From the IMG/VR virus record IMGVR_UViG_3300035494_000025, positions 1 to 43,117 of that record: 43,117 nucleotides of DNA; one strand, written 5' to 3'. The notes below the pieces were generated by a model. The model ran no database searches and was not told the origin of the DNA. It saw only the letters and a program-made list of their open reading frames with translations. This document shows, piece by piece, positions 17,349 through 43,117 of this stretch. This stretch comes from a virus. A program made the position numbers and the translations under genes. Positions within the stretch are counted from its first letter, which is position 1. Each line of letters opens with the position of its first letter.

Positions 17349-17400
17349 GCTCGAGGATTGTTTTAAATTTTTAGATATATCATTATATCAATTAAAAATT

Positions 17401-17431
17401 ATCTCTCTATATTGAAGAGATATAGAGAGAT
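17401..17431 (-). terminator. Rho-independent terminator candidate after the PolA-to-hydroxymethylase operon
   Basis: ATCTCTCTATAT-tgaagag-ATATAGAGAGAT, a perfect 12-bp stem. On the minus strand it is followed by AATTTTTAATT. It lies 15 nt after the stop at 17446. Confidence 0.7.
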
Positions 17432-17445
17432 TAAGAGATAATTTT

Positions 17446-18114
17446 CTATTCTATAAAAGACTCAAATAAGGGAGCTACTAGGTCTAAGTGTCTAGGGTAT
17501 ATATGTAGACTTGCACACTGCCATATTATATCACCAGGCTGTTTACCTAATTCACTACATACTTTATCTAGCATAAACTTATGCCAAGCCCAATCATTCT
17601 TGTAACCAAATATTGCATCGTTACTACGCATTTGTACTATACAGTTGATTTTGCTACTATCATATAAATCTTGATTGTAGTTTACTGCATTAGTACAAAT
17701 GAAGTCTTTCATGCCATCTATATATGCATCCTTATGTATAGATGGTCTAGTGTATACCATAGTAGCTTGTTTAGAGTCAGGTCTTTTTCTTAGAGTTCTT
17801 ATAACATTTCTAAACTGCTCACCATTCTCCTTACTAAACACTAAGTAACCATAGTTACTATTTATATTACCATAAGTAGTAGCTACATCCATCCAAACCT
17901 TAGGAGGATTTCGCATATCATACACATTAAGTGATTGTGATAAATACCACTCTATTTCCATTTCTATGTACTCCTTGTTAGGAGTACCAAAAATTCTATC
18001 CTTATCAGCTATAAAGGATACACCTTGAATTTCTAGCATGCCTCTGCTGTTTACTTTTCCAGCAGAGTGCAATTTTCTAAACCATTGTCTTATATCATTA
18101 ACTCTCAAATACAT
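17446..18114 (-). CDS. deoxycytidylate (dCMP) hydroxymethylase, T4 gp42-like (thymidylate-synthase fold)
   Basis: These blocks match my recollection of T4 gp42: LEIQGVSFIADKDRIFG, EIEWYLSQSL, PKVWMDVATTYGNINSNYG, MVYTRPS, DFICTN (nucleophile Cys) and MRSNDAIFGYKNDWAW (Asp retained in KND). The start is moved to the ATG at 18114 (RBS gaggag, 7-nt spacer). Confidence 0.85.
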   Translation of the reverse strand: MYLRVNDIRQWFRKLHSAGKVNSRGMLEIQGVSFIADKDRIFGTPNKEYIEMEIEWYLSQSLNVYDMRNPPKVWMDVATTYGNINSNYGYLVFSKENGEQFRNVIRTLRKRPDSKQATMVYTRPSIHKDAYIDGMKDFICTNAVNYNQDLYDSSKINCIVQMRSNDAIFGYKNDWAWHKFMLDKVCSELGKQPGDIIWQCASLHIYPRHLDLVAPLFESFIE

Positions 18115-19267
18115 CTGGGTTCTCCTCAAACATTTCGTGTATTAACTTAGAATATCCAGCCAAATCTAACCATGAGTCTGCATGGGATGGGTCTGAAGCA
18201 GCTCGCATAAGTTTTAGTATTAAGTCACTAAATACTACTCTTACTGACTCAGGCAAATCTTTGTTTCGTGTAGCAATATGCTTTTCATTTAGAGCGTTCA
18301 TTATAGAACTCCTACATTCAACTCCACTTATATATGTACCGTATACAGTAGCTCTCTGACTTAACACATCATCAATAGAACTTTCTATGTTATCTTGAAC
18401 AGCTTTGGCTGCATATGTTCTGTATACATCAGTGCTTTCTATAAAACTAGATAACATATTAGTTACATTAGTTCTTGCCTCATTTAATAGCCATGCATAA
18501 TCCTCTTTTTCTAGCTTACAAGCTATGCAATCATATAGCCATCCAAGTTTTTCATTAAATAATGAAGTACGATTACCTATTAACTCTGTGGATATAATAG
18601 GCTTAATACCACACATAAATGCTTCATATATCCTGTAAGGAAAATTAGTACCATCGTGAAATTTATCACCAAATACAGGAGTTGAGTAATGCCCTATAAG
18701 CATACTCTTAAGATGGTCTAGGTCTTTAGTGAATGGCCCCATAATCCAATTCTTACTTAGTTCAGCAGGGTATCTTCTACCTATAACTGTAGTACCAGGC
18801 TGTAGAAACTTTTTATATTGCTCATGTCTCTCAGGCTTATATTGCCCCCAATATACTGAACCTGCCTTATCTGGAATTGTCAATTCCCATAAGTCATCGA
18901 AAGAGCTATCAAATAAAGCCAATTCACTAACTTGGAAATATTCCATCTTTGTATCAGATATTGGGTGCTTAGTAAATTGACTAATTATTGTACATGAATA
19001 ATAATCTTCAGGTACCCAACATGTGTGGTCATCTATAAGGTATATAGATGGTATGTTTTTCATGTACAGTAAAACATTTTTTGTATGTACTGATACTTCA
19101 TCAGATAATACCCCATTTGTAACTATAATTAAGTCTATCGTATTTTCTAGAATACTAGCATCTTCTATACGAACTACATCATATAGCTGCTCTAAAGCAG
19201 TAACTATATAATCAGCAAACTTTATATCTATCCTATGCTCTGTAAGACTTGTAACACCTATTGTCAT
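18098..19267 (-). CDS. fusion protein: T4 beta-glucosyltransferase-like domain plus a C-terminal MazG-like NTP pyrophosphohydrolase-like domain
   Basis: The N-terminal ~290 aa carry DLIIVTNG, IYLIDD, SVYWGQYKPERHE and FGDKFHDGTNFPYRIYEAFMCG. These recall the T4 BGT blocks (IYGGS.R.G.RE; GDK.Y.D.F.T.R.WE.M). The C-terminal ~90 aa carry R-x3-YG ... ILKLMRAASDPSHADSWLDLAGY, like small phage MazG-type domains. Confidence 0.55.
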   Translation of the reverse strand: MTIGVTSLTEHRIDIKFADYIVTALEQLYDVVRIEDASILENTIDLIIVTNGVLSDEVSVHTKNVLLYMKNIPSIYLIDDHTCWVPEDYYSCTIISQFTKHPISDTKMEYFQVSELALFDSSFDDLWELTIPDKAGSVYWGQYKPERHEQYKKFLQPGTTVIGRRYPAELSKNWIMGPFTKDLDHLKSMLIGHYSTPVFGDKFHDGTNFPYRIYEAFMCGIKPIISTELIGNRTSLFNEKLGWLYDCIACKLEKEDYAWLLNEARTNVTNMLSSFIESTDVYRTYAAKAVQDNIESSIDDVLSQRATVYGTYISGVECRSSIMNALNEKHIATRNKDLPESVRVVFSDLILKLMRAASDPSHADSWLDLAGYSKLIHEMFEENPDVFES

Positions 19268-20199
19268 TATTTATCCTTTAACTTTCTTGGGTCCCATAAG
19301 GTTAACACATTTGTTTCTGGGTTATATTGGTCTAATCTAACCATACGCATATTAAGTAATGCGTCAAGCATACTCTTACCAGCTTTCTCATAAGCTTCCA
19401 CTACTGCATCCCACATGTCTAACTCACTTTTACATCCTACTAATATTTTATTAGCTTTAGCAGGTCCTATGTTAGATAAGCCTATAATACCATCACCAGC
19501 ATCACCGGTTAGACATTGCTTATACCAGAATTTTTCAGGCTCTTCTGCTGTAACAAACTTCATATCTATAGGTTGTATCTCATTACCGGATTTAGGGTGA
19601 GTGTAACCAGCCCTTGTATAATAGTTGAATGCTTCATGCACAGTAGCTCCTAATACATCTTTATCAACTGCACAAACTATATATTTATCAGGGTACTTAT
19701 TACCTAACCACCAAACTGCATCATCTGCCTCACATTCATACCACATCTTTGTTTTTAGTGGGTATCTTCTACATAGTTCTTGCTTTATTTGATAAAGGCC
19801 AAATGGTGCTCTTGTGTTTGCTCCCTGAGAGTCTACCAATCTGTTGGCTTTGTACTCTTTGGCTATCCTAGTATATCTAAAGCTATCCCTACCGGCTGTA
19901 AAGTGCAAATAAAAGTCCTTACATCCAGTGTTTTCAAGAATAACGTTTAGTTTATTTATACAACTAGTAACTGCTTCATCTATGTTTATACCATATAGTA
20001 CACCAGCTTCTTCATCATAACCGGGGTCATTCTCTATTAGAAGCCATTCTTCATCAGTACATAGTGATTTATCTACTATCTCTGAATACTCACATGATAC
20101 AGCTGCAGCAAATGCTACTGTATCAGCATCTACAAGTGCTATTTTATTGTTTTTATTTGGTAATATTCTACCAGTGCTTCCAAGGTTTACATCTGTCAT
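19267..20199 (-). CDS. 5'-3' flap endonuclease/exonuclease (FEN/PIN-like)
   Basis: KIALVDADTVAFAAA, ECEADDAVWW and TGDAGDGIIGL are acidic-cluster motifs of T5 D15 / T7 gp6-like FEN enzymes. The start is taken at the ATG at 20199, which overlaps the upstream TGA (ATGA). Confidence 0.8.
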   Translation of the reverse strand: MTDVNLGSTGRILPNKNNKIALVDADTVAFAAAVSCEYSEIVDKSLCTDEEWLLIENDPGYDEEAGVLYGINIDEAVTSCINKLNVILENTGCKDFYLHFTAGRDSFRYTRIAKEYKANRLVDSQGANTRAPFGLYQIKQELCRRYPLKTKMWYECEADDAVWWLGNKYPDKYIVCAVDKDVLGATVHEAFNYYTRAGYTHPKSGNEIQPIDMKFVTAEEPEKFWYKQCLTGDAGDGIIGLSNIGPAKANKILVGCKSELDMWDAVVEAYEKAGKSMLDALLNMRMVRLDQYNPETNVLTLWDPRKLKDK

Positions 20200-20918
20200 T
20201 TTGTTTTCTCCATAAATTTCCAACTTCTACTAAATACTTGTTCTGTGCCTAGATTTGTTGCTTTTAGCACACCATAATGTCTATTTTGGAATGTACCACA
20301 ATACCTACATAACTTATTAAGCGTAGCACTCCTATAAGCATATGAATTTGATAATGTATCAGATGCTAAATAGCTCATACCATATAAATCACCACCAGGT
20401 AAATGCATCATCCTGTCTATATTCATAGCAACCGAGCATGGATAGTAGCCGCGTTCATTGAAGCCATTACCGCATATACCTGATTGTCTACACCCCATAG
20501 AAAAATCCATATCTGTATATACTGGATCATCTATAGGTGCATTCATAGTTAATGCAAATACAGGCTCAGTATCTTTTGTCTTAGATGAGTCCTCTATAAC
20601 TATATCAACTGGTGGAGTATAATGCACCAATCCATTAGTTGTAAGTATAACATTAAAATGCTGAGCTAAGTTTATAATTATATAATCTATATCAGGATGT
20701 AATGTAGGCTCACCACCAAGTATAGCAACCACTAAGTCTTTACCGTAATGCTTGTTAGCTACAATGAACTCATCTATATAATACTTATCCAGTGTTTTAA
20801 AAGTAGACTTGAACTGTGAAAATCTATTGCAGTTATTACAACTAAGATTACACACAGTATTTATGTCTATCTCAACTATTAGTTTGCCTTTTTCCATAGC
20901 TTTTTTTCTAGTAAGCAT
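20196..20918 (-). CDS. radical SAM enzyme with a Cys-rich (SPASM/twitch-like) C-terminal part; substrate unknown
   Basis: CNLSCNNC is the CxxxCxxC cluster motif and ILGGEPTLHPD is the SAM-binding GGEP motif. Later cysteines occur in CRQSGICGNGFNERGYYPC and CRYCG. Confidence 0.8.
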   Translation of the reverse strand: MLTRKKAMEKGKLIVEIDINTVCNLSCNNCNRFSQFKSTFKTLDKYYIDEFIVANKHYGKDLVVAILGGEPTLHPDIDYIIINLAQHFNVILTTNGLVHYTPPVDIVIEDSSKTKDTEPVFALTMNAPIDDPVYTDMDFSMGCRQSGICGNGFNERGYYPCSVAMNIDRMMHLPGGDLYGMSYLASDTLSNSYAYRSATLNKLCRYCGTFQNRHYGVLKATNLGTEQVFSRSWKFMEKTK

Positions 20919-22702
20919 TATTCTACCTCCATAGGTACATCTTTATATTTAAAGAGTGCTGTCTTACTAATTTCAGTCCAACCTTTTAGCATGCTTGCTC
21001 TCTGTAATGCATCCCAATATTCTTTTTCAGATTTAGGTACTCTAGAGTATATCGCATCATGTACTACATTATATATGTATTTTAATGCTAGCGGATTTTC
21101 TTTAATCATATAGTGTGCACCTAACTTAGTAGTCTCTGCACCACTACCTTGAATAGGTATATTTATACCATCTGTTCCTAGCTTAGGTTTTACTCTACGG
21201 CCTAAGGCAGTTTCAACAAAGAAATCAGGCTTTTTATACGATCTCCATATACTACCATGTAAGACAGATAGCTCAGGATACATCTCAAAATAAGCAGCTC
21301 TTAGCTCTTTTGCTTCTTCAGCAGTTACTACTATATCATAGTTAACAAATGCATAAGGTACATAGGAGTCTGCACTCATGCCAAAAACGAAACCAAAGTT
21401 AATAGCTTTAGCGTCATTACGATTTTGTTCATCTAGGTATAACTCATGACCAGTGCCCCATGGTAACATATTTCTATGATTTATGTTTGGAAAGCCATCA
21501 GGTGCTATTGATTTCTTAGAAGCCTTAACAGCCATATCAATATGTAGGTCTCTGCCTTCTTTAAATTGTTTGTACATAAATGGTACTTTGTATATTGCAC
21601 ATGCTAACCTTAACTCTAGTGTAGAGTAGTCCAAATCTATAACAGTAGTATCTCCTATATCCTGAGTAAATAGCTTCTGAAAATCTCTAGGTATTTGCTG
21701 TGCATTAAATCCATCATCTAAATCACCGCCTGCAGATGTAAACCTTCCTGTAATAGCACCAGCAGCATTAAACTTTGTGTACATTTTATCAAAGTTAATA
21801 CTTTTTAAATATGATACCTGCTTTTTGTACTTTTTAGCATTTATTATATATGATGCATTATTGCTATACTCATTGTTTTTAGATACTATGGTTACTAATG
21901 CCTCATTATCACTATTACTAGAATTTAATAATTTTCTAACTTGTTTGTATGAGTTAGGATTAAACCCTTTAGGTAGTAAGTTTGTATACTTTATTACTTC
22001 TTTCTCAGCAAACTCTAGCTTTTGCTTCCATAGTTCTCTATCAACCATAAGCCCATTTTGTTGATATATTAATGCATAAGCTTGTGACATCATATCTACT
22101 TTATAAGCTAGATTATTTTCTATAACGTTTTTGATTTTTTTATCCCGCCACATTAAAGATAAAGCAAGTACGTCTTTAGCAGCATAATCATATGCTTGTG
22201 ATGCAATGTATGAGCCTCTTATGAACCCTTTTGCAGAGTCATTAGTGTTTATACCTTTATACATATCTTTTGTATATGATAACTTGGTTACTACGCTCTT
22301 AAGGCCAAACTCCATAAACTCTGGATAAGCAGTTCTAACAGCATAAAATAGGTCATCAACTCTATGCTCATATTTTGAGTCCATAGTAATATCAGCAGGA
22401 TGTTTAGCACCCATAGATGGGGAAATATTTAATGTACCTAAATCATAACTTGAATTGTACCATACAGTATGCATAGACATTACAAAATCTTCTATTAGGA
22501 TAAGCTCTTTAGCCCATTGTTGTTTATTGTATCCTATAGGAGCAATATCTATTATGTAGATAATATCGGTTGTTTGTGGTTGTAGTACTTGTAGAGTTCT
22601 TAGTGGTCCATATAGGCCATCTGTTTCACTATCACAAAAGACTGGTAGTGATTTGTCAAAAGCGGGGAGCTCAGACACCGAATTTATTATTTTGTATTCC
22701 AT
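20918..22702 (-). CDS. DNA polymerase, family A, with 3'-5' exonuclease domain
   Basis: Exo motifs FCDSETDGL, WYNSSYDL and YAAKDV. Pol motif A DLDYSTLELR, motif B RNDAKAINFGFVFG and motif C VVHDAI. Confidence 0.9.
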   Translation of the reverse strand: MEYKIINSVSELPAFDKSLPVFCDSETDGLYGPLRTLQVLQPQTTDIIYIIDIAPIGYNKQQWAKELILIEDFVMSMHTVWYNSSYDLGTLNISPSMGAKHPADITMDSKYEHRVDDLFYAVRTAYPEFMEFGLKSVVTKLSYTKDMYKGINTNDSAKGFIRGSYIASQAYDYAAKDVLALSLMWRDKKIKNVIENNLAYKVDMMSQAYALIYQQNGLMVDRELWKQKLEFAEKEVIKYTNLLPKGFNPNSYKQVRKLLNSSNSDNEALVTIVSKNNEYSNNASYIINAKKYKKQVSYLKSINFDKMYTKFNAAGAITGRFTSAGGDLDDGFNAQQIPRDFQKLFTQDIGDTTVIDLDYSTLELRLACAIYKVPFMYKQFKEGRDLHIDMAVKASKKSIAPDGFPNINHRNMLPWGTGHELYLDEQNRNDAKAINFGFVFGMSADSYVPYAFVNYDIVVTAEEAKELRAAYFEMYPELSVLHGSIWRSYKKPDFFVETALGRRVKPKLGTDGINIPIQGSGAETTKLGAHYMIKENPLALKYIYNVVHDAIYSRVPKSEKEYWDALQRASMLKGWTEISKTALFKYKDVPMEVE

Positions 22703-22807
22703 TGTAGTTCCTTAGTGTTTTAGACAACTCTGTCTTTTAAAATGGCAATATATCATCCAATAGCGTGTGAAAGTTTGCCACTAATACCTTATAGCTTTCG
22801 CAACAAT

Positions 22808-24452: not shown

Positions 24453-25082
24453 CTAAATCGGCTTAACACTATCTGTGAATAAATATTTATGCTCTTCTGG
24501 TAAAGCTTTAAATATAGCAGTAGCAAGTAACCTAATCTCCCACAGTGCTGATTTGTCTGTACGTAATGATAAGAAGTTTTGTAAGCTCCTTGCATTAACT
24601 GTCCATACAAATGAAGTCTTATAGGCTTCTACTATGGCATACTTAGATATATCTCTAGGTAGAGACTTGCCACGTTTTTTTATAAGTTCAGATAGCTTAG
24701 TCATATGTTCAATGTTTAAATTGTCTATATCCAAATCACCAGTCATAACAAGGCATTCTTTAATAGTACCTAAACCATCAAGTACTTTCTCTAATGTATA
24801 CCTACTAGATTGAACACTAATAGATGCAATACGATGTCTAGCCTGCTCTTGCAGTAATGCCCTTGATGGCCCATCTATATCAAAGTTATAAACCAGATGT
24901 TCTAATGTTGAACTGTGCTTGTTCTTATTGCCTACTCTATCTATAATGGCCATATCTGCTTGACCAGTACAGATTACTTCACCATTGTAATCTGTATCAC
25001 TCTTATCTTCGCTTGCCCAACATTTCCTAATAGCTTTAGAAGCAACATATAAAGGTGTGCTATGTAATAATTTTACTTTCAT
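24453..25082 (-). CDS. thyX: flavin-dependent thymidylate synthase
   Basis: ThyX signature RHRIASISVQSSRY (RHR-x7-S-x-RY), with a typical N-terminus and size (209 aa). Confidence 0.9.
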   Translation of the reverse strand: MKVKLLHSTPLYVASKAIRKCWASEDKSDTDYNGEVICTGQADMAIIDRVGNKNKHSSTLEHLVYNFDIDGPSRALLQEQARHRIASISVQSSRYTLEKVLDGLGTIKECLVMTGDLDIDNLNIEHMTKLSELIKKRGKSLPRDISKYAIVEAYKTSFVWTVNARSLQNFLSLRTDKSALWEIRLLATAIFKALPEEHKYLFTDSVKPI

Positions 25083-42811: not shown

Positions 42812-43117
42812 ATGCCTTTAATTTTTAATGGTACTAAAATACCAGAAAATGTAGCAAATGTACTTAAGTTTAATGGTACTAATATTACTAAAGTAATATT
42901 TAATGGTGTTGCAGTTTGGGTGCAGAATTTGTATGTAGGCCCTACTGTAGGTGTATATTATGGAGGACTAATTTCGAATAATCCATTTACCCCAACAAAT
43001 GCAGTAACAAGGATAAATTCTAGTGGTACTATTATAGGCTCTGAAACACCCGTAGGTATCCCAAGGTATGGACTTGCAGGTGCAAGTATAGATAACGTAG
43101 GTGTATATTATGGAGGA
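42812..43117 (+). CDS. Kelch-like beta-propeller repeat protein, 5' portion (continues at base 1)
   Basis: aaggagggtatATG is a strong RBS. The frame is open to the last base. The last 82 nt equal bases 1-82, and the frame is continuous with 1-808. The joined gene (42812-43035 plus 1-808) is 1032 nt, or 343 aa. Confidence 0.75.
   Translation, partial: MPLIFNGTKIPENVANVLKFNGTNITKVIFNGVAVWVQNLYVGPTVGVYYGGLISNNPFTPTNAVTRINSSGTIIGSETPVGIPRYGLAGASIDNVGVYYGG

Follow-up and report, generated by a model that had tools for sequence, protein, structure and literature searches.

A compact twitch-like radical SAM protein encoded alongside a putative hydroxymethylcytosine glycosylation gene pair in an uncultured phage: a candidate tailoring enzyme for DNA-linked sugars

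Glycosylated hydroxymethyl- and hydroxycytosines are a main means by which phages escape restriction enzymes and CRISPR nucleases, and the known diversity of the sugars stems from different glycosyltransferases (GTs) and from phage-made sugar nucleotides. The literature on T4 and the other described systems has these GTs and sugar-nucleotide enzymes, and we found in it no radical S-adenosylmethionine (rSAM) enzyme in phages that glycosylate 5-hydroxymethylcytosine (hmC) or hydroxycytosine (hoC). Among natural-product rSAM enzymes, SpeY, the twitch dehydrogenase of the spectinomycin pathway, oxidises a sugar hydroxyl in a glycoside. BtrN, the 2-deoxy-scyllo-inosamine dehydrogenase of butirosin biosynthesis, oxidises a secondary alcohol by two electrons, which its auxiliary cluster probably accepts (PMC9012708). 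The sugar epimerases HygY and NeoN of aminoglycoside pathways are cited in PMC10991966 as cases in which a twitch rSAM enzyme epimerises a sugar carbon, instead of oxidising it, when hydrogen is given back by a cysteine. The first rSAM enzyme described as helping to install a modification in DNA was gp53 of Pseudomonas phage M6 (PMC8989533). Here we analyze an rSAM gene in the IMG/VR virus record IMGVR_UViG_3300035494_000025, the whole 43,117-nucleotide stretch of which is referred to below as the window. The gene lies between those for a family A DNA polymerase (PolA) and a FEN nuclease, and we argue, with slightly better than even confidence, that its product is a compact BtrN/SpeY-like twitch rSAM enzyme that performs an optional tailoring step of phage hmC glycosylation by acting on a DNA-linked or DNA-destined sugar. 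This role is supported by the SpeY/BtrN-like fold, by the co-occurrence of the gene with a GT and a hydroxymethylase in phages, and by the fusion or adjacency of its wider family to glycosyltransferases (coordinates are collected in Table 1).

The open reading frame (ORF) is a real, conserved gene that is present in the same slot of nine further related phage contigs at 42-71% identity, the 71% figure being that of L001 (JGI 3300033148). Its product is a member of the rSAM superfamily, carrying both the CX3CX2C and GGE motifs and matching PF04055 (Radical_SAM) in Pfam at 33.5 bits against a gathering cut-off of 29.5, although this match spans residues 21-98 only. The original prediction, made from the sequence alone, had drawn attention to a CNLSCNNC cluster motif, a GGEPTL motif, extra cysteines suggestive of an auxiliary Fe-S cluster, a gene start sharing a base with the polymerase stop, a gene stop overlapping the FEN start, and a position upstream of base-modification genes, all of which were borne out. 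Both motifs were read in the translation, and the codons for C23, C30, G68-E70, C143, and C149 were compared with the DNA. The TAA of PolA and the ATG of the rSAM gene have one base in common (TAATG; GGAGGTAGAATAATG, minus strand), a GGAGG lies 8 nt 5' of that ATG, and the rSAM TGA overlaps the FEN ATG as ATGA (GGAGAAAACAAAATGACA, minus strand). Farther downstream are genes for a GT-B enzyme resembling the T4 beta-glucosyltransferase (BGT) and for a gp42-type dCMP hydroxymethylase, with a FEN/GT junction that again reads TAATG and a GT/hydroxymethylase overlap of 17 nt. Since the junctions from PolA through rSAM, FEN, and GT to the hydroxymethylase comprise four successive overlaps, and since the only good terminator-like hairpin (17401-17431) follows the last of these genes, with just a weak 5-bp terminator match inside the block, the five genes look like a single unit.

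The rSAM protein was modelled with AlphaFold (AF2) on an alignment of 24 homologues from a word-indexed search, which yielded a pLDDT of 90.3 and a pTM of 0.88. The model has a shortened AdoMet-radical core (residues ~13-125) with only four or five core strands, followed by a twitch-like domain (residues ~140-215) in which a beta-hairpin at residues 151-159 (strands 151-154 and 157-159) precedes a helix. Foldseek comparison with the PDB returned SpeY as the best match (7wzv; E 3.7e-7, TMq 0.59, ~282 aligned columns, full length), and BtrN also aligned over its full length (4m7s/4m7t; E 2.8e-4). These two were the only full-length fold matches in the PDB; other rSAM structures aligned over ~90-110 N-terminal residues, and anSME was among the structural matches. 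A profile search of PDB sequences with the rSAM protein found SpeY (5e-8, N-terminal part), AbmM, and BtrN. In a BFVD fold search, proteins of uncultured Caudovirales were the only ones to align over the full length, while the rSAM proteins of Campylobacter phages aligned in the N-terminal core only.

A twitch domain consists of a beta-hairpin and a subsequent helix, its cysteine ligands being placed so that one precedes the hairpin, another follows it, and the remaining two come after the helix (PMC6231123), and the auxiliary cluster of BtrN is fully ligated by four cysteines (PMC6231123; PMC9012708). The C-terminal cysteines in the rSAM translation follow the pattern C143-RQSGI-C149 ... YP-C161 ... 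C204-RY-C207, in which C143, C161, C204, and C207 occupy exactly the twitch positions, so that the C-terminal domain fits a twitch-like fold with a predicted second cluster site. When 170 family members were aligned to a profile, these four positions were practically invariant (C143 in 170/170, C161 in 167/170, C204 in 166/166, and C207 in 165/165), as were the SAM-binding residues G68 (169/170), G69 and E70 (both 170/170), and H74 (165/170). C23, C27, and C30 were cysteines in every aligned member (164-165 of 170, the remainder being gaps). The fifth C-terminal cysteine, C149, was present in 135 of the 170 (79%), with Ser, Tyr, or Val in the other 21%, and its equivalent was kept in all ten members of the phage clade. 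Its replacement in about a fifth of the family may mark a functional split.

The distribution of the gene among related phages was followed by taking PolA relatives from IMG/VR and scoring their contigs with local profiles for the rSAM protein, the GT, and the gp42-type enzyme. Of 11 contigs with both a GT and a gp42-type hydroxymethylase, 10 also carry the rSAM gene; of 12 contigs that have neither, none does. The order PolA-rSAM-FEN-GT(-DUF6378)-hydroxymethylase was kept in nine further phage contigs. Three contigs that have none of the three genes (L107, L108, and L120) encode a PolA 47-52% identical to that of the window, as close as the PolA of rSAM-bearing contigs L105, L106, and L003, and in them FEN follows PolA directly. 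Within this clade, the rSAM gene is an accessory confined to contigs that have the hmC-glycosylation gene pair.

It is conceivable, though in our judgment unlikely, that the enzyme edits a glycan that is not on DNA, for instance an envelope polysaccharide of the host or a glycosylated protein of the virion or the host, or that the gene is a mobile accessory in the PolA-FEN slot. The slot is indeed variable: in L095 (5861-6136; the same in L103) it holds a 91-aa ORF that is weakly MazG-like (Pfam E 0.04, below cut-off). Other viral contigs have family members beside GT25, GT2, or GT_PLOD genes without sign of a DNA-modification module, and the hypervariable regions of marine myophages contain rSAM cassettes (PMC7029224). 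However, the BGT-like enzyme is the sole glycosyltransferase in the 43-kb genome, the rSAM gene of this clade is never found without the GT and the hydroxymethylase and was lost with them in L107, L108, and L120, and its overlapping start and stop codons bind it into the same transcription and translation unit. As a separate observation, the PolA-FEN slot is a hot spot for small nucleotide-metabolism cargo.

Beyond the phages, the protein belongs by its signature to an unnamed, glycosyltransferase-associated family of twitch rSAM proteins that we define in this analysis. The family signature comprises CX3CX2CxR, GGEPTLH, NG, K113, (N)APxD, GC143, G157-Y-Y-x-C161, D-R169, C204-x2-C207-G, and S-x2-W233; the window protein carries every element, and conservation of the individual elements across the aligned members runs from 84 to 100% and exceeds 93% for most. 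An exhaustive hidden Markov model search of 1.84 billion representatives gave 518 matches at E <= 1e-30 and 1512 at E <= 1e-10, so that the family spans at least 518 clusters at 50% identity, from bacteria, archaea, and viruses. We found no paper on this family, and no curated family model covers it. Among the best 150 family representatives, 47 were multidomain, and 27 of these 47 carried a glycosyltransferase domain (GT2 in 24); GT25, GT1, nucleotide-diphospho-sugar transferase, nucleoside diphosphate (NDP)-sugar epimerase/dehydratase, sulfotransferase, and methyltransferase domains occurred in one multidomain representative each. Many members form the C-terminal domain of proteins of 1000-1600 aa (P0040, P0052, P0074, P0076, P0082, P0126, and others), and three of the four long members that were scanned individually, among them P0040, P0074, and P0076, had GT2 domains. 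These long proteins also contain large central regions without a Pfam match.

A gene-neighbourhood survey of homologues gave a similar picture of frequent glycosyltransferase fusion or adjacency. Among 80 cellular loci, taken from genomes that represent species across many phyla of bacteria and archaea, 26 had a GT2-like ORF next to the family member or within the same ORF, 16 of them as fusions, as judged with a crude GT2 profile. The cellular members, at 30-36% identity, sit in glycan clusters with GT2, GT_PLOD, uridine diphosphate (UDP)-sugar dehydrogenase and 2-epimerase, methyltransferase, polysaccharide flippase, and other rSAM-SPASM genes as neighbours. In other viral contigs the neighbours were GT25, GT2, and GT_PLOD with UDP-galactopyranose mutase, and an NDP-sugar epimerase/dehydratase, and in the window itself the GT lies one gene downstream, beyond FEN, in the same operon. 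Full-length members at 30-32% identity were also seen in IMG/VR contigs of 330-675 kb (L018, L020, L021, and L022), which may be giant viruses or misbinned cellular DNA; L018, L020, and L022 share an arrangement, and the 238-aa ORF immediately upstream in L018 encodes a GT25 glycosyltransferase.

These associations bear on whether the base, rather than the sugar, might be the target. An anSME-like oxidation of the primary alcohol that turns 5-hydroxymethyl-dC(MP) into 5-formyl-C, or some other radical change at the hydroxymethyl carbon, would draw on the facts that twitch/SPASM dehydrogenases include oxidisers of primary CH2-OH groups, with anSME among the structural matches, and that the rSAM gene is tied as strictly to the presence of the hydroxymethylase as to that of the GT. 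We nevertheless consider such base chemistry quite improbable: the associated genes across the family are those of glycosyltransferases and NDP-sugar enzymes rather than of enzymes for nucleotides or bases, the nearest full-length structural matches act on secondary alcohols of sugars or cyclitols, and oxidation of the hydroxymethyl group would take away the acceptor needed by the co-encoded GT. The likely target is therefore the sugar. The original prediction, which had allowed for tailoring of the hydroxymethyl or glycosyl pyrimidine or of a nucleotide precursor, is supported by the fold, the co-occurrence with GT and hydroxymethylase, and the glycosyltransferase association of the family, and is narrowed here to the sugar.

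The two partner genes point to a T4-like pathway. The hydroxymethylase matched the T4 dCMP hydroxymethylase (1b49) at E 1.8e-54, against ~1e-5 for true thymidylate synthases, and is 50% identical to T4 gp42 over 185 aa. In phage thymidylate synthase (TS) homologues, numbered as in E. coli ThyA, N177D specifies dCMP, L143D/E a non-methyl product, and D169N hydroxylation, and some of these homologues make 5-hydroxy-dCMP instead (PMC13326640, 2026). The window enzyme, with its DFICTN and RSNDaifgykND motifs, has L143D, retains D169, and has N177D. Since it thus equals T4 gp42 at all three diagnostic positions, we call it a 5-hydroxymethyl-dCMP synthase by sequence; a 5-hydroxy-dCMP synthase, as in RB69 and DLP3, was considered and rejected on the retained D169. 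The AlphaFold model of the 389-aa GT protein had a pLDDT of 80.9 overall and was of high confidence over residues 1-290. Its six best Foldseek matches in the PDB were all T4 BGT (1qkj E 2.9e-8, TMq 0.52), and further GT-B enzymes came next. T4 BGT is thus the most similar fold, at 12% identity and without a sequence-family match, and residues 1-290 gave no match in Pfam, NCBIfam, or GenBank phages. We regard the protein as a putative hmC-DNA glycosyltransferase.

The identity of these partners also bears on the roles already known for phage rSAM enzymes, namely QueE, NrdG, and the thymidine-hypermodification isomerase of the M6 gp53 type, any of which we hold to be extremely improbable here. 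The protein does show weak N-terminal similarity to every rSAM family, QueE (phrog_2076, E 2e-4) and NrdG included, and NCBIfam returned sub-threshold N-terminal matches only (MoaA, HpnH, SPASM maturases, viperin, QueE, and NrdG). However, the QueE and NrdG matches fall short of the curated cut-offs by a factor of 7 to 10 and are confined to the generic, cluster-binding third of the protein. QueE (TIGR03963) scored 25.4 bits against a cut-off of 260, and its structure 4njg ranked 25th at E 0.16; NrdG (TIGR02495) scored 17.6 bits against 131. Almost all ORFs of 130 aa or longer in the window, along with many shorter ones, were scanned against Pfam or PHROGs, and among these ORFs we found no QueC, QueD, FolE, or DpdA, no NrdD, and no 5-HMUDK, aGPT-Pplase, or pyridoxal phosphate (PLP) decarboxylase. 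M6 gp53 is spore-photoproduct-lyase (SPL)-like (PMC8989533), yet SPL was absent from the top 50 structural matches, and the TS homologue carries the dCMP-specifying Asp and is not dUMP-specific. The original prediction had pointed to missing QueE and NrdG partners and had raised clear orthology to either enzyme as the counter-case; the scores lie far below the family cut-offs, and the partners are missing from the ORF scans of an apparently complete genome.

For a BtrN/SpeY-like sugar editor, we infer the substrate, the site of hydrogen abstraction, and the outcome of the rSAM reaction as follows. On the T4 paradigm, the gp42-type enzyme would make 5-hydroxymethyl-dCMP, which would then be incorporated into DNA, and the BGT-like GT-B enzyme, judging from its fold, would place a hexose on hmC. 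The cluster bound by C23, C27, and C30 would reductively cleave SAM, and the resulting 5'-deoxyadenosyl radical would abstract hydrogen at a hexose carbinol carbon, either in the NDP-sugar donor or in the sugar on DNA. The sugar radical could then pass an electron to an auxiliary [4Fe-4S] cluster on C143, C161, C204, and C207 to give a keto-sugar, as in dehydrogenation by BtrN and SpeY. Alternatively, the thiol of C149 could quench the radical from the other face to give an epimer, as in HygY and NeoN. We slightly favour epimerisation over dehydrogenation, because C149 is found in all ten phage members and because no gene able to process a keto-sugar is encoded in the genome. The fusion of one family member to an NDP-sugar epimerase/dehydratase hints at an NDP-sugar substrate, and the many GT fusions would fit either an NDP-sugar or a DNA-bound sugar. 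Isoelectric points were considered as a hint of a DNA or a small-molecule substrate and were dropped, the phage rSAM proteins ranging from pI 4.7 to 8.6 and the presumed DNA-binding GT being itself acidic. More tentatively, and with somewhat less than even confidence, we suggest that this is the first rSAM step in cytosine DNA hypermodification, in which the hexose of glycosyl-hmC is epimerised or oxidised so that a host sugar nucleotide gives rise to a non-glucose or keto-hexose adduct; the same chemistry would assign a function to the GT2-fused family.

Several observations weigh against this proposal. The TM-scores to SpeY and BtrN are moderate (0.44-0.60) at identities of 12-17%, residues 125-240 have no match to Pfam SPASM (PF13186) even at E 10, and a PDB sequence search with the profile of the C-terminal domain alone returned nothing; the domain is too divergent to be recognized from sequence, and the twitch assignment is therefore based on predicted structure and cysteine topology. 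C149 could simply bind a cluster, as a fifth ligand or an alternative one, in the manner of the CX5C of anSME. The rSAM gene is separated from the GT gene by FEN. L095/L103, the only exception to the co-occurrence, keeps the GT and the hydroxymethylase and has no rSAM gene, so the pathway evidently runs without it and the rSAM gene could be unrelated cargo. Moreover, the phage genomes compared are related to one another, and the contrast of 10/11 with 0/12 therefore overstates the number of independent events. In one contig (L005, 1574-9881), a cellular family member ends a cassette resembling those for ribosomally synthesised and post-translationally modified peptides (PqqD, ScmC, three other rSAM proteins, an S24 peptidase, and methyltransferases), followed by GT2, so not every member of the family need act on sugars, and some might act on glycopeptides.

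For FEN, the ORF lister placed the start at TTG 20223, which is too early, since the ATGA overlap of the rSAM stop and FEN start indicates ATG 20199; this ATG is preceded by a GGAG and fits the alignments of homologues, and an independent call on another assembly of this phage (Logan SRR11791834) gave a 310-aa FEN starting inside the rSAM stop. The DUF6378 domain fused to the GT is a separate ORF of ~95-110 aa in L002, L102, L105, L106, and L096. It is kept beside FEN in relatives without GT and hydroxymethylase (L107, L108, L111, L114, and L120), and because of this persistence it was left out of the pathway; its occurrence is probably not tied to the modification module, and it has a role independent of DNA modification. 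We found no functional literature on DUF6378 and no Pfam match at the level of MazG, and its PHROGs family name, 'phosphofructokinase', looks spurious. The rest of the window is made up of replication and structural genes. Those for replication encode the flavin-dependent thymidylate synthase ThyX (24453-25082), which coexists with the gp42-type hydroxymethylase, a DUF5906 protein, a ligase, helicases of the ResIII and PIF1 types, and an unannotated protein of 214 aa, possibly a single-stranded DNA-binding protein; portal, major head protein, tail fibre, and terminase genes are also present. Sugar-nucleotide genes were not found in the ORF scans of the window.

The genome is 43.1 kb at 35.5% GC and has no tRNA. 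Positions 1-82 are identical to 43036-43117, and this exact 82-bp repeat, whether a terminal repeat or the mark of a circular assembly, indicates that the contig is probably a whole genome. Over positions 1-795 a 150-bp unit is repeated in tandem (5.3 copies, 84% matches). GenBank phages gave no DNA match to 17400-22800 and no tblastn match to the rSAM protein or the GT, PolA was at most 28% identical to that of any GenBank phage, and there was among them no cultured relative usable for annotation.

Table 1. Features of the rSAM locus, with positions as numbered in the window.
Feature	Position	Strand	Basis or remark
Family A DNA polymerase (PolA)	20918..22702	minus	PF00476 E 1.9e-30; stop overlaps rSAM start
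rSAM gene, 240 aa	20196..20918	minus	ORF, ATG start, PF04055
CX3CX2C: C23-NLS-C27-NN-C30	20829..20852	minus	ligands of the SAM-cleaving [4Fe-4S] cluster
GGEPTLH, aa 68-74	20697..20717	minus	'GGE' SAM-binding motif and family-specific His74
Twitch-like, predicted auxiliary-cluster region C143-x5-C149-x7-G157-x3-C161 ... C204-x2-C207	20298..20492	minus	
FEN / 5'-3' exonuclease	19267..20199	minus	phrog_107 exonuclease E 2.5e-46; weak Pfam 5_3_exonuc matches
GT-B domain, aa 1-~290 of 389-aa protein (18098..19267)	18398..19267	minus	T4 beta-glucosyltransferase-like fold
DUF6378 helical domain fused to GT, C-terminal 90 aa	18098..18370	minus	PF19905 E 1.8e-6
gp42-type dCMP hydroxymethylase, thymidylate-synthase homologue, 227 aa (17446..18129)	17446..18114	minus	T4 gp42 match
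Terminator-like hairpin after hydroxymethylase, 12-bp stem and T run	17401..17431	minus	consensus match only

If the proposal is true, an rSAM enzyme in such an operon would constitute a new route to diversity of DNA sugars, in which one small gene edits a common host sugar, and members of the family would be in-line radical editors of newly transferred sugars. This would be relevant to predicting phage resistance to type IV restriction, to new enzymatic reagents for DNA labelling, and to the sequencing of such genomes. It would also give the first functional handle on a large glycosyltransferase-associated family in bacterial and archaeal glycan clusters that is, as far as we found, uncharacterised, and it would do so in a small entry system, with a 240-aa enzyme, a set of two partner genes, and DNA as an easily analyzed product.

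Compared with the described systems, the rSAM protein is most like SpeY and BtrN in build. SpeY (7WZV), its best structural match, is ~60-80 residues longer, shares 16-17% identity with it, and works in a natural-product rather than a DNA pathway. BtrN (4M7T) resembles it in size (~250 aa), in having one cysteine before the hairpin, one after it, and a CX2C after the helix, and in its full-length Foldseek match, and the group that it attacks is a secondary alcohol on a carbohydrate-like ring. The AdoMet-radical core of BtrN is abridged too, as Goldman and co-workers are said to have reported in 2013, and its auxiliary ligands are presumably C169, C188, C232, and C235, a numbering that we did not use as evidence. 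BtrN differs in belonging to an aminoglycoside pathway, in sharing 12-13% identity and no sequence family with the rSAM protein, and in that the phage family has its own signature and the extra C149. That conserved cysteine, beyond the four presumed ligands, suggests an analogy with HygY and NeoN, which we liken to the rSAM protein by description only. M6 gp53 is similar in being a phage rSAM enzyme whose target in DNA is a group attached to a hydroxymethyl-pyrimidine; in contrast to the window system, it is SPL-like, acts on a glycine adduct of 5-hydroxymethyldeoxyuridine (5-hmdU), and requires a 5-hmdU DNA kinase, aGPT-Pplase, and a PLP decarboxylase. T4-type hmC glycosylation is matched by the gp42-like enzyme, with its 50% identity and same diagnostic residues, and by the BGT-like GT-B fold. 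Unlike T4, the window represents a 43-kb uncultured lineage that has a radical SAM gene, a GT with a DUF6378 tail, and no dCTPase or dNMP kinase domain in any scanned ORF. The window system is best described as a putative BtrN/SpeY/HygY-like twitch rSAM sugar editor recruited into a T4-like hmC-glycosylation module.

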